Shown here: piece after piece, positions 4,256-49,808 of the stretch
Layout of the letters: the number at the start of each line of letters is the position of its first letter
How positions within the stretch are numbered: position 1 is the stretch's first letter
From: Candidatus Poribacteria bacterium
GTDB taxonomy: Bacteria > Poribacteria > WGA-4E > WGA-3G
Length of the DNA: 64,000 nucleotides
Direction: 5' to 3'
Assembly (NCBI GenBank): GCA_965197475.1
Contig: CBDANF010000002.1
Coordinates: 1,280,001 to 1,344,000 of the forward strand
Program-made: the position numbers and the translations under genes
Notes under the pieces: generated by a model
Seen by the model: only the letters and a program-made list of their open reading frames with translations
Told to the model about the DNA's origin: nothing
Databases searched by the model: none

Positions 4256-7200
4256 CTACTGATTCGCTTGGACGATTTCCGCTTGTGTTTTACCGAAATA
4301 TGAGGCTACCTGAACGAGGTCACGGATATCCACCTTACCATCCATGTTCACATCGCCGGAAAGTTCTTCGCCAGATTCACCGAATTGGTTTGCAACCAAC
4401 ACTAAATCCTGAATATTCACCTTCCCATCGGCATTAAGGTCCCATGGTACTGGTTCTATCGTGGTTGCAGTTGTGATTTCAGCAGTTTTCGTGCTATCTC
4501 CTTTCGATGTAGCGATCACTTTAATTTCATATTCACCCAGTTTTGTGAAGAAATCACCCGCAGCTATAAATGTAACTTCAGCAGAAGCACCGGGAGCAAG
4601 TTCAATCTTCAACTGGCTTGTAGGAATTTCCTGATCGTCAGATTCACTGAACGATCCGAGCACGCTACCTTCAATCCCGATCTCTGCAGAAGAGCCAAGC
4701 ACTACCGTATCGTCGATATTACCGGTGTTTGTGACTGTGATCGTATAACTGACACCCGCAAACATATCCATCGTTGCGCCTTTCAGTTCGCCTTCATCTT
4801 GTAACATTACACCGTAGACCGGCGGAATAGTTGTAGCCGTTGTGATTTCAGCGGTTTTCGTGTTATCGCCTTGTGAGGTTGCCGTAACTTTAACTTCATA
4901 AGTACCCGCAATCGCAAGCGCATCGCCAGAAACTGTCAGTGTCACTTCTGCCGAAGCATTAGGTGCAAGCGAGACAGAGGTTTCACTTAAGGTAGCAGCA
5001 ACATCGCCTGATGTAGCTAAATCTATCATATCATCAGTGTTACCGGTGTTTGTGACTTTGAGCGTATAAGTAACACCTTCACTCGCATCTGCTGTTTCGG
5101 TTGTCAAATCGCCTACGCCTGCCAACGTAACACCATAAACAGGGAGAATAGTTGTCTTTGTTGAAACCTCAACTATTTTCGTATCATCGCCTTGTGAGGT
5201 TGCCATAACTTTAACTTCATAATCACCTGCTTTCGCAAGCGCATCACCAGAAATAGTTAATATAATTTCTGCTGAAGTGCCAGCGGCAAGCGAGACAGAG
5301 GTTTCACTTAAGGTCGCAGAAGCATCACCTGACGTGGCTAAATCTAAAACGTCATCTGTGTTGCCAGTGTTCGTAACTGCGATTGTATAACTAACACCTT
5401 CACCCGCATCTGCTGTTTCGGTTGTCAAATCGCCTACACCTACTAACGTAACATCATAAACAGGGAGAATAGTCGTGGTCGTTGAAATGTCCGCAGTCTT
5501 TGTGCCATCCCCTTGCGAAGTGGCTGTAACCTTGACTTCATAAGCTCCAGCAGTCGCAAGAACATCATCAGAAACAGTTAATATAATTTCTGCTGAAGTG
5601 CCAGCGGCAAGCGAGACAGAGGTTTCACTTAAGGTCGCAGAAGCATCACCTGACGTGGCTAAATCTAAAACGTCATCTGTGTTGCCAGTGTTCGTAACTG
5701 CGATTGTATAACTAACACCTTCACCCGCATCTGCTGTTTCGGTGGTCAAATCGCCTACGCCTGCTAACGTAATGCCATAAACCGGAATAAGCGTTGTGGT
5801 CGTAGTGATTTCAGCGGTTTCTGTGGTATCCCCTTGCGAAGTGGCTGTAACCTTGACTTCGTAATCCCCAAATATTGTTAAGGCACTACCAGAAATCGTC
5901 AATGTTACCTCCGCTGAAGCATTGGCACCAAGCGAGACAGCGGTTTGGCTTAATGTAGCAGTCACATCACCTGATGCTACTAAATCTATCACATCATCTG
6001 TGTTACCGATGTTCGAAACTGCGATCGTATAACTGACATCCTCACCCACATCAGATGTTTCGGTGGTCAAATCGCCTACACCTGCTAACGTAATGCCGTA
6101 AACAGGGAGAATAGAAATAGTCGTGGTCGTTGAAATCTCCGCGGTTTTTGTAGCATCTCCTTGTGAGGTGGCAGTAACTTTGACTTCATAAGCACCTGCA
6201 GTCGCAAGAACATCGTCAGAAACAGTTAATATAATTTCTGCGGAAGCACCCGCACCAAGCGAGACAGCGGTTTGGCTTAAGGTCGCAGAAGCATCACCTG
6301 AAGCACTCAAACTTATTGTATCGTTTGTGTTGCCGGTGTTTGTGACTCGGAGCGTATAACTCACCCCAGCACTTGCATCTATCGTTTCCTTTGTTAATCT
6401 GTCTACACCTGCTAAAGTAACACCGAAAACGGGAAGAATAGTTGTCTTGGTTGAAACCTCTGCCGTTTTTTCGGTATCGCCTTGTGAGGTTGCCGTAACT
6501 TTGACTTCGTAATCTCCGGCAATCGCAAGCGCATCGCCAGAAACTGTCAGTGTCACTTCTGCGGAAGCATTAGGTGCAAGTGATACAGAGGTTTCACTTA
6601 GGGTCGCTGCAACATCGCCTGATGTAGCTAAATCTATCATATCATCTGTGTTGCCGATGTTCGTCACTGCAAGCGTATAACTGACACCTTCACCCGCATC
6701 AGCTGTTTTAGTTGTCAACTCATCCACACCAGATAACGTAACACCGTAAACAGGGAGAATAGTTGTAGTCGTTGATACCTCAGAAGACTTTGTGTTATCT
6801 CCTTGCGAAGTCGCCGTAACTTTGACTTCGTAATCACCAGCAATCGCAAGCGCATCGCCAGAAACTGTCAGTGTCACTTCTGCCGAAATATTAGGTGCAA
6901 GCGAGACAGAGGTTTCACTTAAGGTAACAGCTACATCGCCTGATGTAGCTAAATCTATCATATCATCAGTGTTACCGGTGTTTGTGATTTTGAGCATATA
7001 ACTGACACCTTCACTCGCATCTGCTGTTTCGGTGATCAAATCTCCTACGCCTGCCAACGTAACACCGTAAACAGGGAGAATAGTTGTAGCCGTTGTGATT
7101 TCAGCGGTTTTCGTGTTATCGCCTTGTGAGGTTGCCGTAACTTTAACTTCATAAGTACCCGCAATCGCAAGCGCATCGCCAGAAACTGTCAGTGTCACTT

Positions 7201-10200
7201 CTGCCGAAGCATTAGGTGCAAGTGATACAGAGGTTTCACTTAGGGTAGCAGCTACATCGCCTGATGTAGCTAAATCTATCATATCATCAGTGTTTCCAAT
7301 GTTCGTGACGGTGAGCATATAACTGACACCTTCACCCGCATCAGATGTTTCGGTTGCCAAGTCTCCTACGCCTGCTAATGTAATACCGTAAACCGGAAGA
7401 ATAGTTGTCTTGGTTGAAACCTCTGCCATTTTTTCGGTATCGCCTTGTGAGGTTGCCGTAACTTTGACTTCGTAATCTCCGGCAGTTGCAAGCGCATCAC
7501 CAGAAATAGTTAATACGACTTCTGCGGAAGCATTAGGTGCAAGTGATATAGAGGTCTCACTTAAGGTAGCATCGTCAGTCGTAGTTAGATTGATCACATC
7601 ATCTGTGTTGCCGATGTTCGTCACTGCAAGCGTATAACTGACACCTTCACCCGCATCAGCTGTTTTAGTTGTCAACTCATCCACACCAGATAACGTAACA
7701 CCGTAAACAGGGAGAATAGTTGTAGTCGTTGATACCTCAGAAGACTTTGTGTTATTTCCTTGCGAAGTCGCCGTAACTTTGACTTCGTAATCACCAGCAA
7801 TCGCAAGCGCATCACCGGAAATCGTCAATGTTATTTCTGCTGAAGCACCCGCGGCAAGCGAGACTATGGTCTGACTTAATGTCGCTGCAATATCACCTGA
7901 CGTTGTTAAATCTATCACGTCATCTGTGTTACTAATATTTGTGATTTTGAGCGTATAACCGACACCTTTACCCGCATCAGATGTTTCAATGGTCAAGTCT
8001 CCTACGCCTGCTAACGTAACACCATAAACAGGGAGAATAGTTGTCTTTGTTGAAACCTCAACTATTTTCGTATCATCGCCTTGTGAGGTTGCCGTAACTT
8101 TGACTTCGTAATCTCCGGCAATCGCAAGCGCATCGCCAGAAACTGTCAGTGTCACTTCTGCCGAAGCATTAGGTGCAAGTGATACAGAGGTTTCACTTAG
8201 GGTAGCAGCTACATCGCCTGATGTAGCTAAATCTATCATATCATCTGTGTTTCCAATGTTCGTGACGGTGAGCATATAACTGACACCTTCACCCGCATCA
8301 GATGTTTCGGTTGCCAAGTCTCCTACGCCTGCTAATGTAATACCGTAAACCGGAAGAATAGTTGTCTTGGTTGAAACCTCTGCCATTTTTTCGGTATCGC
8401 CTTGTGAGGTTGCCGTAACTTTGACTTCGTAGTCACCTGCTTTCGCAAGCGCATCACCGGAAATAGTTAACATTACTTCTGCCGAAGCACCCGCAGCAAG
8501 TGATACAGAGGTCTCATTTAAACTCGCAGCAACATCACCTGATGTAGATAAATCTATCATATCATCAGTGTTACCGGTGTTCGTGACGGTGAGCATATAA
8601 CTGACACCTTCACCCGCATCAAATGTTTCAGTTGCCAAATCTCCTACGCCTACTAACGTAACACCATAAACAGGGAGAATAGTTGTCTTTGTTGAAACCT
8701 CTGCCATTTTTGTGTCATCGCCTTGTGAGGTTGCCGTAACTTTGACTTCGTAATCTCCAGCAATCGCAAGCGCATCACCGGAAATAGTTAACATTACTTC
8801 TGCCGAAGCACCCGCAGCAAGTGATACAGAAGTCTCATTTAAACTCGCAGCAACATCGCCTGATGTAGATAAATCTATCATATCATCAGTGTTACCGGTG
8901 TTTGTGACGGTGAGCGTATAAGTAACACCTTCACTCGCATCTGCTGTTTCGGTGATCAAATCTCCTACGCCTGCTAATGTAATACCGTAAACCGGAAGAA
9001 TAGTTGTCTTGGTTGAAACCTCTGCCATTTTTTCGGTATCGCCTTGTGAGGTTGCCGTAACTTTGACTTCGTAGTCACCTGCTTTCGCAAGAACATCACC
9101 GGAAACTGTCAATGTTACTTCTGCCGAAGCACCCGCAGCAAGTGATACAGAGGTCTCATTTAAACTCGCAGCAACATCACCTGATGTAGATAAATCTATC
9201 ATATCATCTGTGTTACCGGTGTTCGTGACGGTGAGCATATAACTGACACCTTCACCCGCATCAAATGTTTCAGTTGCCAAATCTCCTACGCCTACTAACG
9301 TAACACCATAAACAGGGAGAATAGTTGTCTTTGTTGAAACCTCTGCCATTTTTGTGTCATCGCCTTGTGAGGTTGCCGTAACTTTGACTTCGTAATCTCC
9401 AGCAATCGCAAGCGCATCACCGGAAATAGTTAACATTACTTCTGCCGAAGCACCCGCAGCAAGTGATACAGAAGTCTCATTTAAACTCGCAGCAACATCG
9501 CCTGATGTAGATAAATCTATCATATCATCAGTGTTACCGGTGTTTGTGACTTTGAGCGTATAAGCAACACCTTCACTTGCATCTGCTGTTTCGGTGGTCA
9601 AATCGCCTACACCTACTAACGTAACACCATAAACAGAGAGAATCGTCGTCGTGGTTAAAACATCTGCTGTTTTCATGGTATTACCTTGTGAAGTAGCTGT
9701 AACTTTGACTTTGTAATTCCCTGCTTTTGCTAAGGCACTACCAGAAACCGTCAATGTTACCTCCGCTGAAACACCCGCAGCAAGAGATATTGAGGTTCGG
9801 CTTAATGTAGCAGTTGCATCGCCTGATGTTGCTAAACGAATCGTATCGGTTGTGTTACCGGTGTTTGTGACTTTGAGCGTATAAGTGACACCTTCACTCG
9901 CATCCTCCGTTTTTTTAGTCAATGCGTCTATCCCTAACGTGACACCATAAACGGAGAGAATCGTGGTGGTAGTCGTGACTTCAGCAGTTTTCGTGCTATC
10001 TCCTCGCGAAGTTGCTTTTACTTTAACTGTATAATCGCCTGCTTTCGCAAGGGCAGTACCGGGAACTGTCAATGTTACATTCGCCGAAGCACCTGCAGCA
10101 AGCGATACAGAGGTCCGACTTAGTGATGCGCTGACACTGCCTGATGATGACAAACTAATCACATCATCTGTATTACCTATATTTGTAACCTTGATCGTAT

Positions 10201-10837
10201 AAGTAATTCCAGAACTTGCATCCGCCGTTCTCTTGGTCAATGCGCCTACACCCGCTAACGTAACACCGTAAACAGGGGGAACGTCCGATGTCGCTTTTTG
10301 GGTATAGATGTAATCACCTGAAGTTCCAAAATCGCTATTAGCGGCGTTTCCTGCGGCGTAAAACGTAATAGGTCCAATATCGGTAGCGGGGGCAGTCCAT
10401 TTAAAGGTCCACTGGTTTTTGTCTCTTGTTCCCTGTGCACTTCCAGCAGAGGTATGTTTAATATATTGTTTACTGTTTTCTTCTGATAATTGTGTATTCC
10501 CATCCGCTGCAGCAAAAGTGCCAGCGCGCGCGTTGTTCCTGTTCAGTGCTGTCATCTCAAATCCCCACTTACTCTGTCCAGCACGTGATAATTCGACAAC
10601 AATATCATACACCTCACCCGGCAAATAGTTCTCAGGAACTGTTAACATCAGTGAACCACCAGAGGCGTTAAGGGTATTGCCAACGTGGCATTGTGTACAG
10701 TTGCCTTCACCATGAGCACCTGTTAATTTATTTGGTGGACCATTACCAAAAGAAAAAGCAAATACACTACTATTGCTTGCAAGAAAAAAGAGTGCAAGCA
10801 TTGTCCAAATAGGAAAGATTTTTTTCAGATAATTCAA
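4256..10837 (-). CDS. Giant secreted protein: Reeler-like (choice-of-anchor V type) domain with CxxCH, 18 Ig-like (NEW3-like) repeats of about 107 aa, C-terminal dockerin-like domain
   Basis: Signal peptide; GNCTQCH, WGFEMTA, WTFKWTAP, FYAAGNAANSD; 18 VYG...TNTGNTDD...ATSQGD units; tail DLNADGKVNIQDLVLVA...GDVNMDGKVDIRDL. Start set at TTG 10837 behind AAAGGAG (track start is 10891). Confidence 0.85.
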   Translation of the reverse strand: MNYLKKIFPIWTMLALFFLASNSSVFAFSFGNGPPNKLTGAHGEGNCTQCHVGNTLNASGGSLMLTVPENYLPGEVYDIVVELSRAGQSKWGFEMTALNRNNARAGTFAAADGNTQLSEENSKQYIKHTSAGSAQGTRDKNQWTFKWTAPATDIGPITFYAAGNAANSDFGTSGDYIYTQKATSDVPPVYGVTLAGVGALTKRTADASSGITYTIKVTNIGNTDDVISLSSSGSVSASLSRTSVSLAAGASANVTLTVPGTALAKAGDYTVKVKATSRGDSTKTAEVTTTTTILSVYGVTLGIDALTKKTEDASEGVTYTLKVTNTGNTTDTIRLATSGDATATLSRTSISLAAGVSAEVTLTVSGSALAKAGNYKVKVTATSQGNTMKTADVLTTTTILSVYGVTLVGVGDLTTETADASEGVAYTLKVTNTGNTDDMIDLSTSGDVAASLNETSVSLAAGASAEVMLTISGDALAIAGDYEVKVTATSQGDDTKMAEVSTKTTILPVYGVTLVGVGDLATETFDAGEGVSYMLTVTNTGNTDDMIDLSTSGDVAASLNETSVSLAAGASAEVTLTVSGDVLAKAGDYEVKVTATSQGDTEKMAEVSTKTTILPVYGITLAGVGDLITETADASEGVTYTLTVTNTGNTDDMIDLSTSGDVAASLNETSVSLAAGASAEVMLTISGDALAIAGDYEVKVTATSQGDDTKMAEVSTKTTILPVYGVTLVGVGDLATETFDAGEGVSYMLTVTNTGNTDDMIDLSTSGDVAASLNETSVSLAAGASAEVMLTISGDALAKAGDYEVKVTATSQGDTEKMAEVSTKTTILPVYGITLAGVGDLATETSDAGEGVSYMLTVTNIGNTDDMIDLATSGDVAATLSETSVSLAPNASAEVTLTVSGDALAIAGDYEVKVTATSQGDDTKIVEVSTKTTILPVYGVTLAGVGDLTIETSDAGKGVGYTLKITNISNTDDVIDLTTSGDIAATLSQTIVSLAAGASAEITLTISGDALAIAGDYEVKVTATSQGNNTKSSEVSTTTTILPVYGVTLSGVDELTTKTADAGEGVSYTLAVTNIGNTDDVINLTTTDDATLSETSISLAPNASAEVVLTISGDALATAGDYEVKVTATSQGDTEKMAEVSTKTTILPVYGITLAGVGDLATETSDAGEGVSYMLTVTNIGNTDDMIDLATSGDVAATLSETSVSLAPNASAEVTLTVSGDALAIAGTYEVKVTATSQGDNTKTAEITTATTILPVYGVTLAGVGDLITETADASEGVSYMLKITNTGNTDDMIDLATSGDVAVTLSETSVSLAPNISAEVTLTVSGDALAIAGDYEVKVTATSQGDNTKSSEVSTTTTILPVYGVTLSGVDELTTKTADAGEGVSYTLAVTNIGNTDDMIDLATSGDVAATLSETSVSLAPNASAEVTLTVSGDALAIAGDYEVKVTATSQGDTEKTAEVSTKTTILPVFGVTLAGVDRLTKETIDASAGVSYTLRVTNTGNTNDTISLSASGDASATLSQTAVSLGAGASAEIILTVSDDVLATAGAYEVKVTATSQGDATKTAEISTTTTISILPVYGITLAGVGDLTTETSDVGEDVSYTIAVSNIGNTDDVIDLVASGDVTATLSQTAVSLGANASAEVTLTISGSALTIFGDYEVKVTATSQGDTTETAEITTTTTLIPVYGITLAGVGDLTTETADAGEGVSYTIAVTNTGNTDDVLDLATSGDASATLSETSVSLAAGTSAEIILTVSDDVLATAGAYEVKVTATSQGDGTKTADISTTTTILPVYDVTLVGVGDLTTETADAGEGVSYTIAVTNTGNTDDVLDLATSGDASATLSETSVSLAAGTSAEIILTISGDALAKAGDYEVKVMATSQGDDTKIVEVSTKTTILPVYGVTLAGVGDLTTETADASEGVTYTLKVTNTGNTDDMIDLATSGDVAATLSETSVSLAPNASAEVTLTVSGDALAIAGTYEVKVTATSQGDNTKTAEITTATTIPPVYGVMLQDEGELKGATMDMFAGVSYTITVTNTGNIDDTVVLGSSAEIGIEGSVLGSFSESDDQEIPTSQLKIELAPGASAEVTFIAAGDFFTKLGEYEIKVIATSKGDSTKTAEITTATTIEPVPWDLNADGKVNIQDLVLVANQFGESGEELSGDVNMDGKVDIRDLVQVASYFGKTQAEIVQANQ
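4455..10275 (-). repeat. Intragenic tandem array, about 321-bp period, 18 units with near-identical mosaic copies
   Basis: For example the sequence at 9361 recurs at 8719 (642-bp two-unit duplication). Confidence 0.9.
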
Positions 10838-10860
10838 AACGTCTCCTTTGCATATACGCG

Positions 10861-10934
10861 AAAAAACGCCCCCGCCGCCGACGCTAATCAACAGTAGATT
10901 CGCGCTCGGATAAACCGGCAGTCGGGGCGTTTTT
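10861..10934. terminator. Long intercistronic stem-loop (AAAACGCCCC...GGGGCGTTTT), terminator-like or RNA-stabilising
   Basis: Inverted repeat flanked by A/T runs between the two co-oriented surface-protein genes. Confidence 0.55.
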
Positions 10935-10958
10935 GTTATTGCGTTTTAGTTGCTAAAC

Positions 10959-13703
10959 CTACTTGAGGATAACCATGCGACGGGTAGCAGAGAAGTTCTC
11001 TGTTTGGAGGACATAGAAATAGATGCCACTCGAAACAGGTTCACCCGCGTCATTTTTACCATCCCAATAAGCTGCAGTCGAACTCGTCATATATAAACCA
11101 GTTGACTTATGACCTAAGCTTAGCGTCCGAACTGAATGACCGGAAACATCATAAATCTCAATCGTTACGTTGGTGTCACGACTCAGCTGATAAGGTATCC
11201 AAGTCTCAGGGTTGAAAGGATTCGGGAAGTTTTGTCCCAGAATCGTGTCTTTAGGACGCACATCGCCAACTCGCATCTGGACACTCATATAGGCGTTGTG
11301 GATATCCGTAGTTTGGACGGTGCGTTGGAACGGCCCGGACACAATAGTCCCGCGTTCGTCAAGGAGTGCGATCTCAACTTTATCGCCAGCTTCAACGACA
11401 CTCTTATAGTTCGAGTCTGCCCATACAGCAGTGACGCGTCCATCTTCACTGGTAACTTTTTGTGTTGCGACAACTCCTGTGCGGAGGTTTTTGGCAACCA
11501 TTGTGTAAGATGCACCGGTCTCTTTATCTTTCAAGGCACTTGTAATGATAAACGCCCAAGCATCTTTAGCAGTGGTAAGTTTTGGTGCAGCAGCGGCATC
11601 TTCCTCAGCCATTTCAGTCATTTCCGGCATTTCAGCTGGTGGGTTAGCCCACGCTGTACCACTAAATGTTACCGTTCCGCCAGTAGGTGTATTGACAATA
11701 TACCCTTTCCCACCTTCAATACCGAAATTGTAGCCACCTTCAATGCCAGCAACATATCCTACAAATTCTTGTGTTGCTGCGTTTAACTTGATGACAACTG
11801 TTGAACCTAACATCTCCGCAAGAGATTGTGCAGTATAGGGTTCTGTCGGCATCAACGGAACAGAGATCATGTTTAATCCCGCTTCAAATGTGACATCATA
11901 AGTAGGTAAAGGTGGTGGCATCGGTTCTTCAGGTAATACCGGTACTTCAACTACAGGTGTGATCATCAAAAGTGCTGTCGGTTCTGTCCAAGCAAATGCT
12001 TCGCCTACATCACCAACACCTTGGATACCAGCATGCGGTGTAATTACGCCACCTACTGTCGGCACACGTGCATTGCTACCCATCGGATCAGCATCCGCAG
12101 GTAAACCGACTGGACCAGGAATATCAGTCCCACGTTCGGTATTTTGTTCACTACCTGCGTCATAAGACCTCAATCCCAATGTTGTGGAAATAGGCATAGC
12201 AGCTGCATCATAGAGTGGTAAGTCAGCAACCCCGATAAATGCGTCATTTGTTGAGACCAACATTGTTGCAAGAGAGAGCGAAGAGTTCATGGCATCTGCT
12301 GTTAGACGAACGGTAACAGACGCGCTGGGATCAATAAGCCCCTCAGTGGCAGCAGCGTTTGCTCCTACAGCGGTGGCAAGTGCAGCAAGTCCTGAGGGAT
12401 CGCCATTTTCAGCAAGGAGGACAAGTGCCTCCGTAGCAGGTTGACCAACTTCGTATATCTTGGCACCAGCGGCGTGCGTTGAAAAGATCGGTGGTGAGAA
12501 GATTTGTCCACCCATACCATGCTCACCTGTGGTGAGGTTGGTCAGGGTAATCTCAAACATTTGGGGTTGGGGTTCGGGAACTATAATCGTTGTAGTCGTT
12601 GATACCGCAGCAGTTTTTTCCGCATCCCCTTGCGAAGTGGCGGTAACCGTAACTTCGTAAGCACCCGCTGTTGCTAAGGCATCATCGGAAATAGTCAATG
12701 TTACATCCGCTGAAGCACCAGCAGCAAGTGATATAGAGGTTTGATTTAATGTAGCAGTCGCATCGCCTGAAGTAGTCAGGCTTATTGTATCGTTTGTATT
12801 ACCGGTGTTTGTCACTCGTAGCATATAACTGACACCATCACCAGTATACACTGTTTCGGTTGTCAACTCACCCACACCAGATAACGATACACCGTAGACA
12901 GGGAGAATCGTTGTAGTCGTTGATACCACAGCAGTTTTTTCCGCATCCCCTTGTGAAGTGGCGGTAACCTTAACTTCGTAAGCACCCGCTGTTGCTAAGG
13001 CATCACCGGAAATAGTCAATGTTACATCCGCTGAAGCATCAGCAGCAAGTGATATAGAGGTTTGACTTAATGTAGCAGTCGCATCGCCTGAAGTAGCCAG
13101 GCTTATCGTATCGTCTGTATTACCGGTGTTTGTCACTCGTAGCGTATAACTGACACCATCTCCAGCATCCGCTGTTTCGGTTGTCAACTCACCCACACCA
13201 GATAACGATACACCGTGAACAGGGACAGTAACCGAACCATCTGCGGTTGTTACTTCCAATTCATCACTACCGGCATCGGAAATGAGAACATCTGTCAAGG
13301 TGATAGCGGACGCTTTTACCTCAACGACTTCAAACGTTACCGTAGCGAGTGTGCCGTCCCCATCCTGAGCAGCACCAAGCGTAATGAATTGGATGCTACT
13401 ATCAGAGGCAAGTCCACTAGGTGATACACTCGGGAAAGCTGCTAGATAATCCGCGTTGTAAGCACTGGAAATATATTTGAGCGCAGTTGGATCAAAGTTT
13501 AAGGTTACTTGGTAACCAGCAACATCTTCACCACCAGCAATATTAATATTCACGGTGAGTTGTTCACCTACCGCCGGGGATTCAATTGTAGCGGGATCAA
13601 CAGAAACGGTGGCTGCACCGTAACTCATCGCTGTCCATCCCAAACACATTACAACAGCCATCAAGAAAAAAAACATTTTCCTGTTAAAAAGCTGATTATT
13701 CAT
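10959..13703 (-). CDS. Secreted protein: cohesin-like domain, 2 Ig-like repeats, Spondin_N domain, FlgD-Ig/T9SS-like C-terminal domain
   Basis: VAGYQVTLNFDPTALKY...GDGTLATVTFEVV (cohesin); FSPPIFSTH, LAENGD, MLVSTNDAF, YDAGSEQN (spondin); QNFPNPFNPETWIPYQL...WDGKNDAGEPVSSGIYFY...RRMVILK. Start at MNNQ behind AAGGAG. Confidence 0.85.
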   Translation of the reverse strand: MNNQLFNRKMFFFLMAVVMCLGWTAMSYGAATVSVDPATIESPAVGEQLTVNINIAGGEDVAGYQVTLNFDPTALKYISSAYNADYLAAFPSVSPSGLASDSSIQFITLGAAQDGDGTLATVTFEVVEVKASAITLTDVLISDAGSDELEVTTADGSVTVPVHGVSLSGVGELTTETADAGDGVSYTLRVTNTGNTDDTISLATSGDATATLSQTSISLAADASADVTLTISGDALATAGAYEVKVTATSQGDAEKTAVVSTTTTILPVYGVSLSGVGELTTETVYTGDGVSYMLRVTNTGNTNDTISLTTSGDATATLNQTSISLAAGASADVTLTISDDALATAGAYEVTVTATSQGDAEKTAAVSTTTTIIVPEPQPQMFEITLTNLTTGEHGMGGQIFSPPIFSTHAAGAKIYEVGQPATEALVLLAENGDPSGLAALATAVGANAAATEGLIDPSASVTVRLTADAMNSSLSLATMLVSTNDAFIGVADLPLYDAAAMPISTTLGLRSYDAGSEQNTERGTDIPGPVGLPADADPMGSNARVPTVGGVITPHAGIQGVGDVGEAFAWTEPTALLMITPVVEVPVLPEEPMPPPLPTYDVTFEAGLNMISVPLMPTEPYTAQSLAEMLGSTVVIKLNAATQEFVGYVAGIEGGYNFGIEGGKGYIVNTPTGGTVTFSGTAWANPPAEMPEMTEMAEEDAAAAPKLTTAKDAWAFIITSALKDKETGASYTMVAKNLRTGVVATQKVTSEDGRVTAVWADSNYKSVVEAGDKVEIALLDERGTIVSGPFQRTVQTTDIHNAYMSVQMRVGDVRPKDTILGQNFPNPFNPETWIPYQLSRDTNVTIEIYDVSGHSVRTLSLGHKSTGLYMTSSTAAYWDGKNDAGEPVSSGIYFYVLQTENFSATRRMVILK

Positions 13704-13891
13704 ATAAACACTCCTTACTAAATTCATTTACTATTGTGACGTTTTCTCTACCTTTCGGTACAGGTTTAAATTTCTCGCTTGAGGAGAGGTTTCACAAGAA
13801 ACCTAAGAGGCATCATTCGTATCAACGTATCACCACTCTATGCACAAAGGCAAATCGCTCAAACGTAGTTATACACTTAACAGATACGTTT

Positions 13892-13920
13892 ATTCTAACT
13901 TAAAAACGTTGTCAAGTCAA
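13892..13920 (-). promoter_or_regulatory. Sigma70-type promoter for the surface-protein operon
   Basis: TTGACT-17 nt-TAGAAT on the minus strand, about 190 nt upstream of the start codon. Confidence 0.55.
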
Positions 13921-15093: not shown

Positions 15094-16527
15094 ATGGAAA
15101 AGTTTACGAAACCCGCCGGAACAAACGATTTTCTAGCCGAACAGATGGTTCAACGAAATTTCGTTGAAAATATCGTTCGTGAAGTATATGAAAGTTACGG
15201 GTACGCACAGATTCAGACACCACTGTTTGAATCCTTCGCACTTTTATCCGCACAATCCGGCGAAGAGATACGTCACAAAATGTTTACGTTTGTTGGTCCA
15301 GATAGGGTAGATTATGCACTGAGACCTGAACTCACCGCACCCGTTTGTCGAATTATTGCAAATGGTGACCTACAACATTTGCCTTATCCTTATAAACTCT
15401 ATTACATCGGACAGTGTGTGCGTCAGGAACCGAAAACTGACAATCCAGAGGTGAGGCGCGAATTTCGACAGGCAGGAGTAGAACTGATCGGACCTGCATC
15501 AACACTTGCAGACGCAGAGATTATTACACTACCGGTTCGGATTCTTGAAAAGCTCAATATTTCGCAGACGAAGTTGAAAATCGGCAATACTGGTATCTTC
15601 CGTGAGATTTTTAAACAGGTTGCACTTGATCCGAAAGATCATAGTGAAGTGATATTGGACATTGATCACCTTGCGCGGCTGCAGGTGGAAAGCCAACTTT
15701 TGGACATGGAGACGCTTCGCGATGAACTGAATATGTTGCGGCGTTTGCAAGGAACTGACTACCAAGGTGACCACAAGATTGAGACATCTACTATTCAGGA
15801 GTTAACAGAAAACAACACCACTACTTGGACAGAGAAGTTACCGATGATTGCTGAAGAAACCTATAAAGCGAGATGGCACAGATATTTCAATATATCAGAG
15901 GAGATAGCGCAGCGTTGTATTGATGTCTCAAAGATCAGCGGTAATAAGGATGTTGTCATGGCAGCGTGGGACACGTGTCTCGGTGATACTGCACAGGAAG
16001 TTCGCGAAGAGCTGCGGACACTTTGCGAATGTTTGGAAAACTACGAAATTAACGATTTTGAAATTAATCTGGGTATCACGCGCGGGTTTGATTTCTATAC
16101 TGGAACAGTTTTTCAGATTGAGTTACAGGATAAGAATCTTCCAATTTGCGGCGGTGGAAGATACGACCATTTGATCGAAAGTTTTGGCGGACCATCACTA
16201 CCGGGGGCAGGATTTGCATTCCAATTTGATTCACTGATGGAGGCATTTGCTGAAACACAGCGCGAACCTATTCAAGCGAAAAAGGATTACTTTGTCGCAA
16301 CAACTTCTGCTGATCTTATCCCTGAGGCACAACGTCTTGCTGAAACATTGAGACGATCCGGCAAGATCGTAGAAGTAGATCTAATGGATCGCGACCTGCA
16401 AGCACAGCATGACTACGCTGCGCTTGCAAATTACGATTATCTGGTCCGCTTAGCCTCAAATGAACCGATGTGTAAAACGGATCTGAAAACTGGTAACACA
16501 GAAGAGGTTACTATCAAAGACCTTTAA
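15094..16527 (+). CDS. hisZ: ATP phosphoribosyltransferase regulatory subunit (HisRS paralog)
   Basis: LRPELTAPVCR, REFRQAGVELIG, RGFDFYTG, GGGRYDHL; sits upstream of a short hisG, with a canonical hisS following. Confidence 0.8.
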   Translation: MEKFTKPAGTNDFLAEQMVQRNFVENIVREVYESYGYAQIQTPLFESFALLSAQSGEEIRHKMFTFVGPDRVDYALRPELTAPVCRIIANGDLQHLPYPYKLYYIGQCVRQEPKTDNPEVRREFRQAGVELIGPASTLADAEIITLPVRILEKLNISQTKLKIGNTGIFREIFKQVALDPKDHSEVILDIDHLARLQVESQLLDMETLRDELNMLRRLQGTDYQGDHKIETSTIQELTENNTTTWTEKLPMIAEETYKARWHRYFNISEEIAQRCIDVSKISGNKDVVMAAWDTCLGDTAQEVREELRTLCECLENYEINDFEINLGITRGFDFYTGTVFQIELQDKNLPICGGGRYDHLIESFGGPSLPGAGFAFQFDSLMEAFAETQREPIQAKKDYFVATTSADLIPEAQRLAETLRRSGKIVEVDLMDRDLQAQHDYAALANYDYLVRLASNEPMCKTDLKTGNTEEVTIKDL

Positions 16528-16583
16528 AATGGATGTAGACGAATACGATAAACCTTCCTATATCAAAAGCGAGGAAACCGATT

Positions 16584-17354
16584 ATGGAAACAGAAAGGAT
16601 ATTGAATCTACTTTTGCCGAAAGGCACCATACAGTCTGAAACACTTGAGACGTTTCAGCGCGCAGGCTACGAATTAAACGGATACAAGTCAACCGATCGG
16701 TCTTATCGTGCTACCTTTCAAAACGATAGCGAATTCCAGATAAAGATTTCTCGTCCGCAAGAGATACCGGTTTATGTTGGCATGGACAATTTTTATGATT
16801 TGGGAATCACTGGACAAGATTGGGTTGAAGAGACCGATGCGGATGTTGAGGAGATGCTGCCGTTGGACTATGGGTTTGTTAGTATTGTTCTTGCTGTTCG
16901 CGAGGAACGGAAGGACATCAATACTTTCACGGATTTGGTGAACCTTGCGGATAGAAACATTCGCATTTCTACGGAATATCTGAACATCGCGGAGAAATAT
17001 ATCCTTGAAAAGACAGAAAACCGCGTAGCACCTGCGATTTTAACCCCGTGGAAGCGATTGAACACCCTCGGCACTTATCAGTCCCCCATCACACTTATGC
17101 TATCTTTCGGCGCAACAGAGGGGAAACCACCTGAAGAAGCGGATGCTATCATTGATAATTGTAGTTCAGCGCGCACGTTGCAGGCAAACCATCTCAAGAT
17201 AATTGAAGTGCTACGAGAATCTGAATCTACTCTGATTGCAAACCCGAAGTCTCTCAAGGAACCCTGGAAACGCGAAAAAATTGATGAACTGAAGCAGACG
17301 TTAGAAAAAGGATTGCGGAGACGGCGAAGTCAAGCACTTCCCGGACACATTTAA
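16584..17354 (+). CDS. hisG: ATP phosphoribosyltransferase, short form
   Basis: LPKG, RPQEIPVYV, DLGITGQDW, STEY, GATE, ADAIID; no C-terminal regulatory domain. Confidence 0.92.
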   Translation: METERILNLLLPKGTIQSETLETFQRAGYELNGYKSTDRSYRATFQNDSEFQIKISRPQEIPVYVGMDNFYDLGITGQDWVEETDADVEEMLPLDYGFVSIVLAVREERKDINTFTDLVNLADRNIRISTEYLNIAEKYILEKTENRVAPAILTPWKRLNTLGTYQSPITLMLSFGATEGKPPEEADAIIDNCSSARTLQANHLKIIEVLRESESTLIANPKSLKEPWKREKIDELKQTLEKGLRRRRSQALPGHI

Positions 17355-17365
17355 GGAGCAAAATT

Positions 17366-18694
17366 ATGGCGACCATTAAACCGCGCGTCCCCCGTGGTAT
17401 GAGAGATATATTGCCTGAACAGATGATTCGCAGACAATATGTTATAGATGTTATTCGCGATGTATTTGAAGAATTTGGGTTTGAACCGTTACAGACTCCC
17501 GCGCTCGAATTATCCGAAGTGCTCACAGGTAAATATGGACCGGACGCAGAAAAACTAATCTACCAAGCTGGACATACCGGTGGTAAGGAGGACATTTCGC
17601 TTCGGTACGATCTTTCTGTCCCGCTCTGCCGTGTTGTAGCGATGTATCCACAACTGCCGAAACCGTTTAAGCGGTATCAAATTGATCCGGTGTGGCGCGC
17701 AGAACGTCCACAAAAGGGACGTTATCGCCAATTTTTCCAATGTGATGCAGATACCGTCGGAAGCGATAGTATGTTAGCTGACGCGGAAAATGTTAATCTC
17801 ATTTATCAAGTCCTTTTCCGTCTCAGTTTTTATGGCTTTGAGATTAATATCAACAACCGGAAACTGATTACTGGGATAGGGGAATTCGCTGGCGTGCCTG
17901 CTGAACAACTTGGCGGCCTCTATCGCGCTATTGATAAGTTGGATAAGATAGGATTGGATGGTGTTACCACAGAATTACGGGAAAATGAAATACCAGAAGA
18001 TGTTATTGAAAAATTGCTTACGCTGCTACAGATTGAAGGTGATGCGGCAACGGTGCTCAGTGAAATGAATGAACAACTTGGTGATTTAGAAATTGCTCGT
18101 GAAGGCATCGCTGAATTGGATGAGTTAATCCGTTATCTCATGATTTTTGGCGTTCCAGAGGAGATGTACAGGGTGAACGTTGCTATGGTGCGAGGTTTGG
18201 AATACTACACCGGACCGATATATGAAACGGTTGTCAAAAAACCGAAGATCGGCAGCATCACAGGTGGTGGTAGATATGATGAACTCATCGGAAGTTTTAG
18301 CAAACAGAGTTTCCCCGCAACAGGTACAAGTTTCGGCTTTGAGCGGATTATTGACGTAATGGAAGAATTTGATATGTTTCCATCTACTGTAGGGAAAACA
18401 GTGACACAGGTATTAATGACCGTGTTTGATGACGAGCTGATGGAAGAATCCCTTAAATTGGCAACACTGTTACGTCAAGGCGGCATCCGAACAGAGGTCT
18501 ATATTCGTCCTGATCGACTGAGTACACAAATGAAATATGCTGATGCTAAAGGAATCCCTTACGCTGTTATCCTCGGATCGGATGAGTTAGCTGCAGGTAA
18601 CGCTGCTGTCCGGGATTTGGCAAGTAGGGAACAGGAAGATGTTCCATTGGATAAGGTTGTTGAGCAGATTAAGCAGTGGATAGAGAAAACGTAA
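17366..18694 (+). CDS. hisS: Histidine--tRNA ligase
   Basis: PRGMRD, LRYDLSVP, WRAERPQKGRYRQFFQCDAD, RGLEYYTG, GGGRYD, anticodon domain. Confidence 0.96.
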   Translation: MATIKPRVPRGMRDILPEQMIRRQYVIDVIRDVFEEFGFEPLQTPALELSEVLTGKYGPDAEKLIYQAGHTGGKEDISLRYDLSVPLCRVVAMYPQLPKPFKRYQIDPVWRAERPQKGRYRQFFQCDADTVGSDSMLADAENVNLIYQVLFRLSFYGFEININNRKLITGIGEFAGVPAEQLGGLYRAIDKLDKIGLDGVTTELRENEIPEDVIEKLLTLLQIEGDAATVLSEMNEQLGDLEIAREGIAELDELIRYLMIFGVPEEMYRVNVAMVRGLEYYTGPIYETVVKKPKIGSITGGGRYDELIGSFSKQSFPATGTSFGFERIIDVMEEFDMFPSTVGKTVTQVLMTVFDDELMEESLKLATLLRQGGIRTEVYIRPDRLSTQMKYADAKGIPYAVILGSDELAAGNAAVRDLASREQEDVPLDKVVEQIKQWIEKT

Positions 18695-49540: not shown

Positions 49541-49795
49541 ATGAGCTGGTATCATTTCCTCCGAGATGATTGGGATAGATATTATCCAAAATACCTGCAG
49601 TCTGAAACGTGGAAGAAGAAACGTGAGGAGGTCTTTCAACGAGACGGATGTCTTTGTATCTGCGGGCAAACCGCGACAGAGGTGCATCACAAACGTTATG
49701 ACAATGTGGGAAAAGAACCTTTGTCCGATTTAGTTTCACTCTGTAAAGAATGCCACTTTGATTTGCAGGCGACACTTAAGGATATGCGTAGGTGA
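49541..49795 (+). CDS. Small HNH endonuclease
   Basis: YLQSETW, VFQRDG.C.C, EVHH..Y, LVSLCKECH. Confidence 0.8.
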   Translation: MSWYHFLRDDWDRYYPKYLQSETWKKKREEVFQRDGCLCICGQTATEVHHKRYDNVGKEPLSDLVSLCKECHFDLQATLKDMRR

Positions 49796-49808
49796 TAAAG
49801 GAGATAGT

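Follow-up and report, generated by a model that had tools for sequence, protein, structure and literature searches.

A conserved Poribacteria gene pair that may display a Reeler-like head through a cohesin and a dockerin

The window analyzed here is a 64,000-nucleotide stretch of DNA from Candidatus Poribacteria bacterium, which is sponge-dwelling. It contains two adjacent genes that, taken as a whole, are probably best explained as an anchor and a docked stalk displaying a Reeler-like head. The modules of the two proteins suggest that protein 2 binds to protein 1 through a cohesin and a dockerin, and both proteins are predicted to lie on the cell surface. We favor the view that this two-gene surface-display cassette is conserved in one Poribacteria family.

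Results

Organization of the locus

Two co-oriented ORFs were found on the minus strand, gene 1 (10959-13727, 922 aa) and gene 2 (4256-10891, 2211 aa). Gene 1 starts either at the ATG at 13727 or at an alternative start at 13703, which the first-pass annotation had chosen. Since AAAGGAG lies 6-7 nt upstream of the TTG at 10837 and the N-terminus that begins there is signal-peptide-like, gene 2 most likely starts at this TTG rather than at 10891. From the N-terminus, gene 1 encodes a signal peptide, a cohesin, two Ig repeats, a spondin domain, two beta-sandwiches, and a T9SS sorting tail, and gene 2 encodes a signal peptide, a Reeler-like choice-of-anchor V head, 18 Ig repeats, and a dockerin (Table 1). 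All domain calls passed curated HMM cut-offs, and each domain that the first-pass annotation had named in the two genes was recovered in these searches. Three things escaped that annotation: the network of cohesins and dockerins across the genome, the T9SS tail of gene 1, and the head's C-x-x-C-H motif. The promoter-like site ahead of gene 1 is only a pattern match, and the region contains fewer such sites (6) than its shuffled versions (mean 17.7).

Table 1. Coordinates of the features of the gene pair, in positions of the window
Feature	Position	Strand	Basis
Promoter-like site upstream of gene 1 (TTGACT, 17 nt, TAGAAT)	13892..13920	-	Consensus scan, 10/12 matches
Gene 1, predicted T9SS-sorted cohesin anchor protein	10959..13727	-	922 aa; ORF, translation, domain scans, orthologues
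Cohesin module, gene 1 residues 45-168	13224..13595	-	PF00963, 47.2 bits (cut-off 24.1)
Two 107-aa Ig-like repeats of the gene 2 kind	12582..13223	-	TRF period 321, 2.0 copies, 95% matches
Spondin domain, gene 1 residues 390-585	11973..12560	-	NF038123, 121.1 bits (cut-off 40); Spond_N PF06468, 31.6 bits (cut-off 24)
Two beta-sandwich spacer domains with a Pro/Glu/Ala-rich linker between them	11238..11951	-	AlphaFold model; conserved in all anchors found
T9SS C-terminal sorting domain (type A)	10962..11228	-	TIGR04183, 32.6 bits (cut-off 23); Por_Secre_tail (PF18962), 27.3 bits (cut-off 27)
Conserved hairpin and U run, from the gene 1 stop to the gene 2 ribosome-binding site	10858..10942	-	MFE -40.2 kcal/mol, z -2.43
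Gene 2, head, stalk and dockerin protein	4256..10837	-	2193 aa; open frame extends to 10891
Reeler-like "choice-of-anchor V" head with CTQCH	10277..10756	-	NF041895, Reeler, structure model
Ig-like stalk repeats 1-17	4823..10276	-	105-109 aa each; TRF; Pfam/NCBIfam matches
Repeat 18, divergent 125-aa Ig adjoining the dockerin	4448..4822	-	42-51% identity to repeats 1-17
Dockerin, type I-like, two Ca-loop segments	4295..4441	-	Dockerin_1 PF00404, 31.1 bits (cut-off 22.9), 2 stretches

Modules of gene 1

The cohesin alignment spans positions 5-139 of the 139 positions of the PF00963 model. In a scan of the source genome this module was at the top of the 20 cohesin matches (52.9 bits). Its closest counterpart is the cohesin of a paralogous cassette (60% identity), and its identity to the other 18 genomic cohesins does not exceed 46%. 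Tandem Repeats Finder placed 2.0 copies of the Ig-like repeat at 12585-13225. Identity is 88% between the two copies and 60-79% between them and repeats 1-17 of gene 2, and repeats of this type were found in the anchor of just one of 22 related loci (L051).

The spondin domain is one of two in the source genome, and a profile made from 21 orthologues matched only Spondin-2 (mindin, 3d34) in the PDB (E = 6.4e-4). The ~240 residues between the spondin domain and the tail have no Pfam or NCBIfam match. Their AlphaFold model (pLDDT 65.1) has two all-beta halves, with residues 100-127 below pLDDT 50, and Foldseek found generic beta-sandwich matches only (best 5wec, E = 4.7e-4) and no family. The last module occupies residues 834-920 of 922, at the very C-terminus. 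It had been described as a FlgD-like tail, and FlgD_ig does match the same stretch as TIGR04183 (33.6 bits, cut-off 27), but a T9SS C-terminal sorting domain is the better reading. Orthologues of gene 1 are 55-77% identical across 22 Poribacteria loci.

The head of gene 2

NF041895 (choice_anch_V) matches residues 42-199 of gene 2 with 110.8 bits (cut-off 42), and Reeler (PF02014) scores 25 bits in the whole protein (cut-off 21) and 29.6 bits for the head alone. The structure model of the head, of moderate confidence (pLDDT 64.9), resembles a Reeler-type beta-sandwich, nearest to the F-spondin reeler domain and then to cytochrome f. The top seven rows of Foldseek were the human F-spondin reeler domain (E = 2.5e-3, TM 0.45/0.52). 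VIA-align against 48,161 chains ranked 3coo (F-spondin reeler) first (Z 6.6, rmsd 3.3, 102 aligned) and cytochrome f second and third (2jxm, Z 5.9; 4ogq, Z 5.6), with all these Z scores (5.6-6.6) in the range of the tool that is common for unrelated beta-sandwiches. The cytochrome f alignments cover 120-122 residues and run from chain residue 1, including the N-terminal segment. When a profile of the head was compared with PDB sequences, the top rows were designed beta-trefoils (spurious repeats), and Spondin-1 was matched at E = 0.055-0.087.

The cysteines and histidine of CTQCH are C20, C23, and H24 of the predicted mature protein. Ten of 13 orthologues have CxxCH and three have Cx4CH. The motif C-x(2-4)-C-H is present in 137 of 143 representatives of the head family (CxxCH 111, Cx4CH 18, Cx3CH 8) and absent from six, and its second cysteine and histidine are invariant in 100 aligned sequences. 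Cytochrome f has C-x-x-C-H ~20 residues from its mature N-terminus and a beta-sandwich after it. Since C-x(2-4)-C-H is near-invariant in the head as well, at a similar distance (~20 residues) from the mature N-terminus and ahead of a beta-sandwich, the analogy suggests that it may bind covalent haem or metal. Unlike cytochrome f, the head is predicted to be secreted and not membrane-anchored in a b6f complex, no sequence similarity to cytochrome f was detected, and the spacing of the cysteines varies in its family (2, 3 or 4 residues). The variable spacing and the lack of a sequence match count against the haem reading, as do the moderate confidence of the model and the Z scores in the unspecific range. 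No cytochrome match was obtained for the head alone in Pfam at E up to 10. The source genome has three genes of the Cytochrom_C_asm (cytochrome c assembly) family. We know of no C-x-x-C-H motif in the animal reeler domain, unlike the bacterial head.

The head gene is single-copy in the source genome. Its family is bacterial, with 7127 clusters at 50% identity and anchors of many kinds, and Spond_N was absent among the 25 most frequent of the 55 Pfam families in 100 diverse head-family proteins. Literature searches on "choice-of-anchor" and on Reeler with DOMON in bacteria returned nothing on family V.

Stalk and dockerin

Gene 2 has 18 repeat starts spaced by 105-109 aa, and Tandem Repeats Finder reported a period of 321 bp with 16.8 copies at 4719-10114. 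The stalk matches a Pfam FixG_C-like Ig (16 stretches), NPCBM_assoc, and a DUF11-type repeat. Repeat 18 is the type kept in most relatives with a single Ig (L065, L066, L069); the one in L067 is closest to the stalk type. Relatives have 1-24 repeats, 1-2 in one genus and 7-24 in the genus of the window. The range of 7-24 is also that of relatives assembled as single chromosomes, and the exact count of 18 in the window may be an assembly artefact.

The dockerin match covers residues 2151-2199 of gene 2. Its calcium-loop segments read DLNADGKVNIQDL and DVNMDGKVDIRDL, which we take to fit the dockerin calcium-loop consensus. Across 12 orthologues, neither of the two D-x-N-x-D-G-x-V-x-I-x-D-L segments varies, and the helices that follow show little or no change. 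With a mean column identity of 74% in the dockerin, no other part of gene 2 is conserved as well. The same plan of head, Ig, and dockerin was found in 804 homologues, and those with a name are Poribacteria "dockerin type I domain-containing protein".

Conservation of the pair in Poribacteria

Exactly one head gene was present in 81 of the 121 Poribacteria genomes surveyed. In 69 of these 81 head loci, the gene directly upstream, on the same strand, is an orthologous cohesin gene; the remaining 12 comprise 11 loci cut by contig ends and one exception (G086). The cohesin anchor is therefore directly upstream in 69 of the 70 head loci where upstream DNA exists, and the earlier claim that the two genes co-occur in relatives is borne out. 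Because the cohesin anchor is syntenic with the head gene, the proposed docking of protein 2 on protein 1 is well supported.

All 19 fetched loci with a head and upstream DNA encode an anchor made of a cohesin, an optional spondin domain, beta-sandwiches, and a sorting tail. Two of the loci examined (L042 and L067) have one extra gene, encoding a beta-sandwich and a tail, between the anchor and the head gene. Spondin domains were found in 92 of the 121 genomes, and the Reeler-like head and a spondin domain are neighbors in 68 of the 81 head loci. In all three complete loci without a spondin domain upstream (G095, G119, G030), the anchor still has the cohesin, the beta-sandwiches, and the T9SS tail. 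Since these loci keep the cohesin without the spondin domain, the conserved partner is the cohesin anchor and not the spondin domain. G086, which is from another family, has no cohesin gene in ~7 kb upstream, and its head gene has its own dockerin and T9SS tail, suggesting that the head belongs on the cell surface.

Cohesins, dockerins, and secretion genes in the genome

The source genome has at least 20 cohesins, 65 dockerins, and 51 T9SS tails. In a census of ORF architectures, 27 had a dockerin only, 16 a dockerin and a tail, and 8 a cohesin, a dockerin, and a tail. Ten ORFs were sampled from the 31 carrying dockerin(s) only. Five of them have WD40, one LRR, one Cu2_monoox_C, and three the dockerin alone, and a carbohydrate-active enzyme domain was found in none of the 10.

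Only three ORFs in the genome have a cohesin and a tail without their own dockerin, and two of the three are followed by a tail-less dockerin gene. The paralogous cassette is built along similar lines to the pair in the window: a gene encoding a DUF3108-like domain, a cohesin, a spondin domain, and a tail is followed by a gene encoding a DUF3108-like domain and a dockerin. Eight relatives have a paralogous anchor in which no cohesin was detected although two dockerin genes flank it, and thus a dockerin gene beside an anchor does not always go with a cohesin in cis. The gene 2 dockerin is 47-62% identical to many genomic dockerins and has no private signature, and no private dockerin subtype was evident, so its partners may be shared.

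The secretion machinery of the host is proposed to be a divergent type IX-like system whose core parts score below curated cut-offs. A SprA-like ORF of 2194 aa was matched in five collinear pieces (best 65.8 bits, cut-off 200), three PorU-like ORFs scored 255-279 bits (cut-off 420), and a PorV-like ORF scored 83.4 bits (cut-off 250). GldM had no match in the source genome, and since the control genomes were silent too, this result is uninformative.

Intergenic hairpin

A hairpin similar to that between the two genes, with a run of T5-8, was found in 14 of 14 relatives checked. The hairpin is unique within the source genome and had no match in an Rfam scan. RNAalifold gave 18 pairs; at one of them, 5 of 15 sequences have AU in place of GC, a compensatory change. 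The hairpin probably limits read-through, so that less stalk protein than anchor would be made. Contigs from four sponge metatranscriptome runs matched gene 1 with 0-4 differences; they are contigs of one study with possible DNA carry-over and are no proof of transcription. They begin at 10912-10947, near the hairpin, and positions 10624-10885 are uncovered by any contig. For the same reasons, the contig ends were dropped as a sign of termination or of relative expression.

Discussion

Proposed mechanism

We propose that the gene 1 protein is exported by Sec and that its C-terminal sorting domain would direct it to the cell surface through the divergent type IX-like secretion system. On the surface it would present one N-terminal cohesin, spaced from the membrane by the spondin domain and the two beta-sandwiches. 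The gene 2 protein has a signal peptide and no sorting tail, and its C-terminal calcium-type dockerin would plug into the cohesin of gene 1. The Reeler-like head would then sit at the far end of an 18-domain Ig rod, ~70 nm long by our estimate of roughly 4 nm per domain. The head would be the working part, with a candidate covalent haem or metal site, and the stalk an evolvable spacer. The hairpin and U run between the genes would reduce read-through and keep the stalk protein below the anchor. There is no known route across the outer membrane for gene 2, which is without a sorting tail.

Two computational approaches to the binding itself contributed little. Complex prediction with cohesin and dockerin alignments and two Ca gave scores of 0.13 and 0.10 (mark 0.32), without control runs, and is uninformative. 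In a mirror-tree analysis of 18 non-independent pairs, the cohesin-dockerin distance correlation (r 0.77) is no higher than that of other pairs of parts (0.63-0.79), and the partial r is 0.38; obtained without a significance test, this result is too weak to use.

Alternative readings

The gene 1 cohesin and the gene 2 dockerin might instead belong to an open network in which each binds many partners and there is no private pair, the two genes being neighbors with a functional link. We regard this as possible, at a clearly lower probability than the anchor with its docked stalk. The architecture census would fit such a network, and so would the similarity of the dockerins, all 47-62% alike, the eight relatives with dockerin genes beside a cohesin-less anchor, and the lack of excess cohesin-dockerin co-variation. 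In such a network, gene 2 may sit mainly on other proteins with a cohesin, a dockerin, and a tail, and the main cargo of gene 1 may be WD40 or DUF3108 proteins. However, a cohesin anchor upstream of a single-copy head gene in 69 of 70 loci is hard to fit with an arbitrary partner, and the cohesins of gene 1 and of the paralogous cassette form a distinct subfamily (60% versus at most 46% identity).

According to the first-pass annotation, docking would bring the Reeler and Spondin domains back together as in F-spondin, possibly to bind or mimic the sponge extracellular matrix. The part of this claim that stands is that both domains are real. They are true, distant homologues of the F-spondin/mindin modules and, as in animal F-spondin/mindin, a Reeler-type and a Spondin_N-type domain occur together, being adjacent in most head loci (68/81). 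The organism lives in sponges, and the other cargo of the network includes eukaryote-like WD40 and LRR proteins, which would also suit such a role. Nevertheless, we consider the reunion unlikely. Unlike in F-spondin, the domains are on two polypeptides, and the spondin domain is optional in relatives: it is dispensable in all three complete exceptions, where the cohesin anchor persists. The paralogous spondin anchor is paired with DUF3108-like cargo and not with a Reeler domain. Moreover, both bacterial families are large; that of the head is huge (7127 clusters), with many kinds of anchors, and Spond_N is missing from its 25 most frequent Pfam families. No thrombospondin repeats accompany the domains (TSP1 had no Pfam match in either protein at E up to 0.1), and 18 Ig domains would hold them ~70 nm apart, not side by side. 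Since the head and the spondin domain are only 18-25% identical to animal structures, mimicry through a recent transfer is not indicated.

It is very improbable that the dockerin-like module binds no cohesin and is a calcium-binding stabilizing or glycan-binding end piece of a protein that acts separately from gene 1: many non-cellulosomal dockerin-like modules reportedly have no known partner, as Peer and co-workers are said to have described in 2009, and the 27 dockerin-only ORFs outnumber the 20 cohesin modules, but the module keeps both Ca loops and the helices that follow them with little or no change, the source genome has expanded its cohesins together with its dockerins, and gene 2 is syntenic with a cohesin gene.

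Significance of the cassette

Cohesin-dockerin pairs are textbook parts of cellulose-degrading machines. To our knowledge, few roles have been established for them outside such machines. The cassette described here, conserved and single-copy in a dominant sponge symbiont, appears to use a docking pair to hold a non-enzymatic head on a T9SS-sorted anchor, and it sits inside a genome-wide network whose sampled cargo is eukaryote-like WD40 and LRR proteins. The anchor with its docked stalk would thus offer a testable mechanism for the surface delivery and arrangement of the "eukaryote-like proteins" long noted in sponge symbionts, and the differences in stalk length from genus to genus provide a natural handle on reach. 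We found no literature linking Poribacteria or sponge symbionts with dockerins, in a search that had subscription papers and supplementary files outside its scope.

Through the C-x-x-C-H head, a cofactor could be assigned to a bacterial family that is very large, so far uncharacterised, and distantly related to animal Reeler domains. A bolder and rather doubtful reading is that the head is an extracellular covalent-haem beta-sandwich of cytochrome-f-like build, plugged by its dockerin into a T9SS-sorted cohesin carrier as a node of a display bus. If this is true, a family of >7000 sequence clusters would be secreted c-type haem proteins, possibly at the root of animal Reeler domains. In one Poribacteria family the head would be held indirectly, by way of the carrier, which may also ferry the tail-less cargo across the outer membrane, and 1 to 24 Ig domains, depending on the genus, would separate it from the cell. 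It would be a single node in a bus of cohesins and dockerins showing eukaryote-like WD40, LRR, and spondin modules to the sponge host.

Relation to known systems

Similar to the clostridial cellulosome, the pair consists of a surface cohesin protein and a secreted partner whose C-terminal module is a two-segment calcium dockerin, as far as their predicted signals indicate; the genes are adjacent, and the modules of both systems pass the same Pfam models. Unlike the clostridial cellulosome, gene 1 has a single cohesin and no carbohydrate-binding module, and the several cohesins plus CBM of a cellulosome scaffoldin were not seen in it by Pfam and NCBIfam scans. The cargo is a head on an Ig stalk and not an enzyme (0/10 sampled dockerin proteins with a CAZyme domain), and the host is a diderm in which a T9SS sorting tail takes the place of an SLH domain or a sortase signal as the anchor. 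With a single cohesin, no CBM, and no enzyme domain in gene 2, the earlier description of the pair as non-cellulolytic is upheld.

Another parallel, in a diderm candidate phylum, is the cellulosome-like system proposed for Ca. Stygibacter (Cloacimonadota; PMC8542988). From genomes only, its authors inferred dockerin-bearing proteins and a scaffoldin-like cohesin protein whose conserved C-terminal domain would attach it to the cell surface. That system has tandem cohesins, CBM2/CBM3, and chitinase, amylase, and peptidase homologues as cargo, whereas here gene 1 has a single cohesin and lacks a CBM, the cargo is not enzymatic, and the two genes form a fixed cassette.

The gene 1 tail passes TIGR04183, as does Bacteroidota T9SS type A cargo. 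In Poribacteria, TIGR04183 tails were described on WD40 and other eukaryote-like proteins by Kamke et al. 2014 (PMC3909097); that paper reports no Por structural genes and has 0 occurrences of the words cohesin or dockerin. Relative to it, the present analysis adds distant SprA-, PorU-, and PorV-like ORFs and ties the tails to a cohesin-dockerin network.

Domain organization

Gene 1 (the anchor gene) and gene 2 (the stalk gene) are co-oriented on the minus strand, with gene 1 upstream (Table). In gene 1, we found a Cohesin domain (47.2 bits against a curated cut-off of 24.1), the spondin domain NF038123 (121.1 against 40; Pfam Spond_N, 31.6 against 24), and a type IX secretion system (T9SS) sorting domain at the extreme C-terminus (TIGR04183, 32.6 against 23; Por_Secre_tail, 27.3 against 27). 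The first-pass annotation had called this tail FlgD-like. A FlgD_ig match (33.6 bits) does exist, but it falls on the same stretch as the T9SS sorting domain, which had been overlooked. No family was matched by the ~240 residues that separate the spondin domain from the tail; they were modelled as two beta-sandwiches (the spacer) with a disordered linker between them. Gene 2 carries a choice-of-anchor V head (NF041895, 110.8 bits against 42) that also matches Reeler (25 against 21; 29.6 when the head was scanned alone), and a dockerin (Dockerin_1, 31.1 against 22.9). It has no T9SS tail. Its most likely start is the TTG at 10837, behind AAAGGAG, which yields a normal signal peptide ending in ...SSVFA, before FSF.

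Gene 2 contains 18 Ig-like repeats. Seventeen of them are 105-109 aa and mutually 60-97% identical. The eighteenth, of 125 aa, adjoins the dockerin and diverges from the others; it is the conserved, ancestral repeat. These scores and repeat counts confirm the gene pair, domains and repeats that had been read from the DNA. The two repeats in gene 1 have 60-79% identity to repeats 1-17 of gene 2. Since Ig repeats in gene 1 were found only in the window's locus and in one of 22 related loci (L051), this suggests that repeats were passed between the two neighbouring genes. Stalk repeat number varies strongly with genus: complete head-gene ORFs are about 930-2990 aa in the window's genus, with 7-24 repeats in the fetched loci, and 368-527 aa with 1-2 repeats in the sister genus.

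Coordinates of the gene pair, the hairpin between the two genes and other features (G000, the window's genome, with contigs C2 and C3; G086, a surveyed genome; L numbers, fetched loci)
Feature	Sequence	Coordinates	Strand	Content
Gene 1 ORF	Window	10959-13727	-	922 aa, translated ORF
Gene 2 ORF	Window	4256-10891	-	2211 aa, translated ORF
Hairpin and U run	Window	10858-10942	-	Between gene 1 stop and gene 2 ribosome-binding site
Histidine cluster	Window	15094-18694	+	HisZ-like gene, then hisG, then full histidyl-tRNA synthetase
WD40 ORF	Window	49758-52115	+	WD40 propeller, cohesin (50862-51170), C-terminal dockerin (51951-52103); no T9SS tail listed
Paralogous cassette, first gene	L055 (G000:C3:3594000-3608000)	5024-6040		DUF3108-like protein
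Paralogous cassette, anchor	L055	6439-9120		DUF3108-like, cohesin, spondin, T9SS tail
Paralogous cassette, third gene	L055	9287-10093		DUF3108-like and dockerin
Extra genes between anchor and head gene	L042; L067	13165-15021; 5812-7626		Two spacer beta-sandwiches and T9SS tail only
Exceptional head gene	L068 (G086:C77)	7401-9335		Head, Big_9/cadherin-like, LRR, dockerin, T9SS tail
Tandem arrays	G000	C2:590363-597775; C2:640698-648915; C3:991103-1000157; C3:3704334-3711719		4-5 genes, each dockerin-ended
Monooxygenase-type ORF (L077)	G000:C3	1304700-1306340		N-terminal dockerin, C-terminal Cu2 ascorbate-type monooxygenase domain
Overlapping ORFs	G000:C2	1474048-1475825	-	466-aa cohesin-dockerin ORF overlapping 162-aa ORF with only a T9SS tail
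Weak PorV-like ORFs	G000:C3	3990751-3991709; 1412976-1413930		24-26 bits

Conservation of the gene pair

Relatives of gene 1 with 55-77% identity all came from Candidatus Poribacteria assemblies. The 22 loci retrieved with the spondin and spacer part of gene 1 fall into two cassette types. In 12 of them, an anchor (cohesin, spondin, spacer, tail) is followed by a gene with head, Ig repeats and dockerin; a thirteenth, L036, has a head gene that extends off the contig end. The remaining nine are a paralogous cassette with DUF3108-like modules, which in the window's genome has three genes (L055). In eight relatives, no cohesin is detectable in the anchor of this cassette, the gene upstream has an added dockerin, and two dockerin genes flank the anchor. 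In five genomes, only the paralogous cassette was seen at first; each encodes exactly one head gene elsewhere. Three of these head loci were fetched, and all have a cohesin anchor just upstream.

We then surveyed the head gene and its neighbours in 121 genomes of the phylum. The head gene is present in 81 of them, always as a single copy; by family, the counts were 79/81 in the window's family, 0/9 and 0/19 in two sister families, 1/3 in a fourth and 0/8 in the rest. An orthologous cohesin lies 1.8-5.5 kb upstream in 69/81, and 68/81 have a same-strand spondin domain upstream. Of the 12 head genes without the cohesin, 11 are cut by contig ends. The other (L068), from another family, encodes a single 645-aa chain with both dockerin and tail. 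Thus, the two genes co-occur in relatives. In three complete genomes without the upstream spondin domain, the upstream gene still encodes cohesin, spacers and tail. The constant neighbour of the head gene is therefore an anchor that carries a cohesin and is sorted by T9SS; the spondin domain can be absent. Two loci (L042 and L067) have an extra gene between anchor and head gene, and L067 additionally contains a head-like fragment in a short ORF.

The cassette is real and conserved, and apparently undescribed: no literature linking Poribacteria or sponge symbionts with dockerins was found among the openly accessible articles searched.

Proposed docking in a genome-wide network

The 5.7-Mb genome of the window has 20 cohesin matches, 64 dockerin matches in addition to that of gene 2, and 51 T9SS tails. 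Among ORFs, the most frequent architectures were a dockerin alone (27), a tail alone (23), a dockerin with a tail (16), a cohesin with both dockerin and tail (8), and a cohesin with a tail but no dockerin (3). Gene 1 and its paralogue are two of the last three, each followed by a tail-less dockerin gene, and they are the sole spondin-domain proteins of the genome; gene 2 is its sole choice-of-anchor V gene. Ten dockerin-only ORFs were sampled: five have WD40 propellers, one an LRR, one a Cu2 monooxygenase-type domain, and three the dockerin alone. None of the ten is a carbohydrate-active enzyme. Thus, although it uses the same two modules, the system is not a cellulosome, in agreement with the earlier view of the pair as non-cellulolytic.

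The invariance of the cohesin anchor beside the head gene is the main argument that gene 2 docks on gene 1, which we consider somewhat more probable than the contrary. All dockerins of the genome are fairly similar (47-62% identity to that of gene 2), and no private signature distinguishes gene 2's from the others. The gene 1 cohesin groups with the paralogue's (60% identity, against at most 46% to others). A mirror-tree comparison of cohesin and dockerin gave nothing beyond shared phylogeny. Since cohesin-less paralogous anchors are flanked by two dockerin genes, cohesins may be shared among dockerin partners, perhaps including that of gene 1.

The first-pass annotation had proposed a split F-spondin, in which docking reunites Reeler and spondin domains. 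The docking part is supported by the conserved gene order. The reunion is weakened, because the spondin domain is optional, as the three complete genomes without it illustrate; this is the main argument against the proposal, and F-spondin is only a loose analogue of the cassette. Adhesion to host matrix is an unlikely purpose for the pair. If gene 2 docks as we propose, the cassette works like an anchoring-scaffoldin/dockerin pair, yet it is not a cellulosome. It would be a non-cellulosomal cohesin-dockerin display on a T9SS anchor.

In the tandem arrays, all five sampled members with a domain found have WD40 propellers, and these arrays appear to be eukaryote-like cargo families of the cohesin network. 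The dockerin closest to that of gene 2 (62% identity) is in the monooxygenase-type ORF L077. The overlapping ORFs on C2 could be explained by a frameshift in a single gene for cohesin, dockerin and tail, or by an assembly error. An ORF in the window itself combines a WD40 propeller with both modules (Table).

The head domain

The choice-of-anchor V family comprises 7127 clusters at E up to 0.001. The head always lies directly behind the signal peptide. The C-terminal anchor is not constant: of 100 representatives, 19 carry a T9SS tail and 10 carry a dockerin, and PEP-CTERM-like ends were also seen. Of 143 representatives, 137 have a C-x(2-4)-C-H motif, in which the second Cys and the His are invariant (100 aligned); in gene 2 its residues are C20, C23 and H24, numbered on the predicted mature protein. 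The head model has moderate confidence (pLDDT 64.9). In Foldseek, the human F-spondin reeler domain took the top seven rows (E 2.5e-3), and an independent scan of 48,161 chains likewise put it first (Z 6.6); cytochrome f came next, with Z 5.9 and 5.6 for alignments beginning at chain residue 1, ahead of the copper protein YcnI (Z 5.4). Cytochrome f is a beta-sandwich that carries haem on a C-x-x-C-H motif about 20 residues from the mature N-terminus. Three genes of the cytochrome c assembly family are present in the window's genome. From the motif, the fold ranking and these genes, a covalent haem in the head has roughly even odds, and the presence of haem or a metal is likewise evenly balanced. 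The haem reading is kept as a hypothesis because the Cys spacing varies, no sequence match of the head to cytochromes was found, and the Z-scores are modest.

The intergenic hairpin

The hairpin between the two genes is 70 nt long and followed by six U (-40.2 kcal/mol, z -2.43). It is unique in the window's genome and has no Rfam match. A similar hairpin ahead of a T5-8 run was present in 14/14 relatives checked, from two genera. Its sequence is nearly invariant across these genera, where the flanking proteins are only 60-75% identical, and there is one compensatory pair change. The element resembles a conserved terminator or attenuator, which would control how much anchor protein is made relative to stalk protein, and its role may go beyond simple termination.

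Secretion, metatranscriptome contigs and surroundings

Kamke et al. (2014; PMC3909097) described TIGR04183 tails on eukaryote-like proteins of Poribacteria and did not detect Por structural genes. In the window's genome, matches to T9SS components fell below the curated cut-offs: a SprA-like 2194-aa ORF in five collinear pieces (best 65.8 bits, cut-off 200), three PorU-like ORFs (255-279, cut-off 420) and a PorV-like ORF (83.4, cut-off 250). GldM gave no match, and control genomes were equally silent. A divergent T9SS-like route for export in the host bacterium is plausible. Two further, weak PorV-like ORFs (Table) each lie just downstream of a giant ORF (4851 aa in one case, 5213 aa in the other), and the ends of these giant ORFs match the C-terminal region of PorU.

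Contigs near-identical to gene 1 were found in four sponge metatranscriptome runs of one study. One contig, from run X3, lacks exactly 321 nt, which is one gene 1 repeat (window 12685-13007); this is either copy-number variation in the population or assembly collapse. The window also contains an ordinary histidine cluster, in which the HisZ-like gene is HisRS-like and lacks the anticodon-binding domain.
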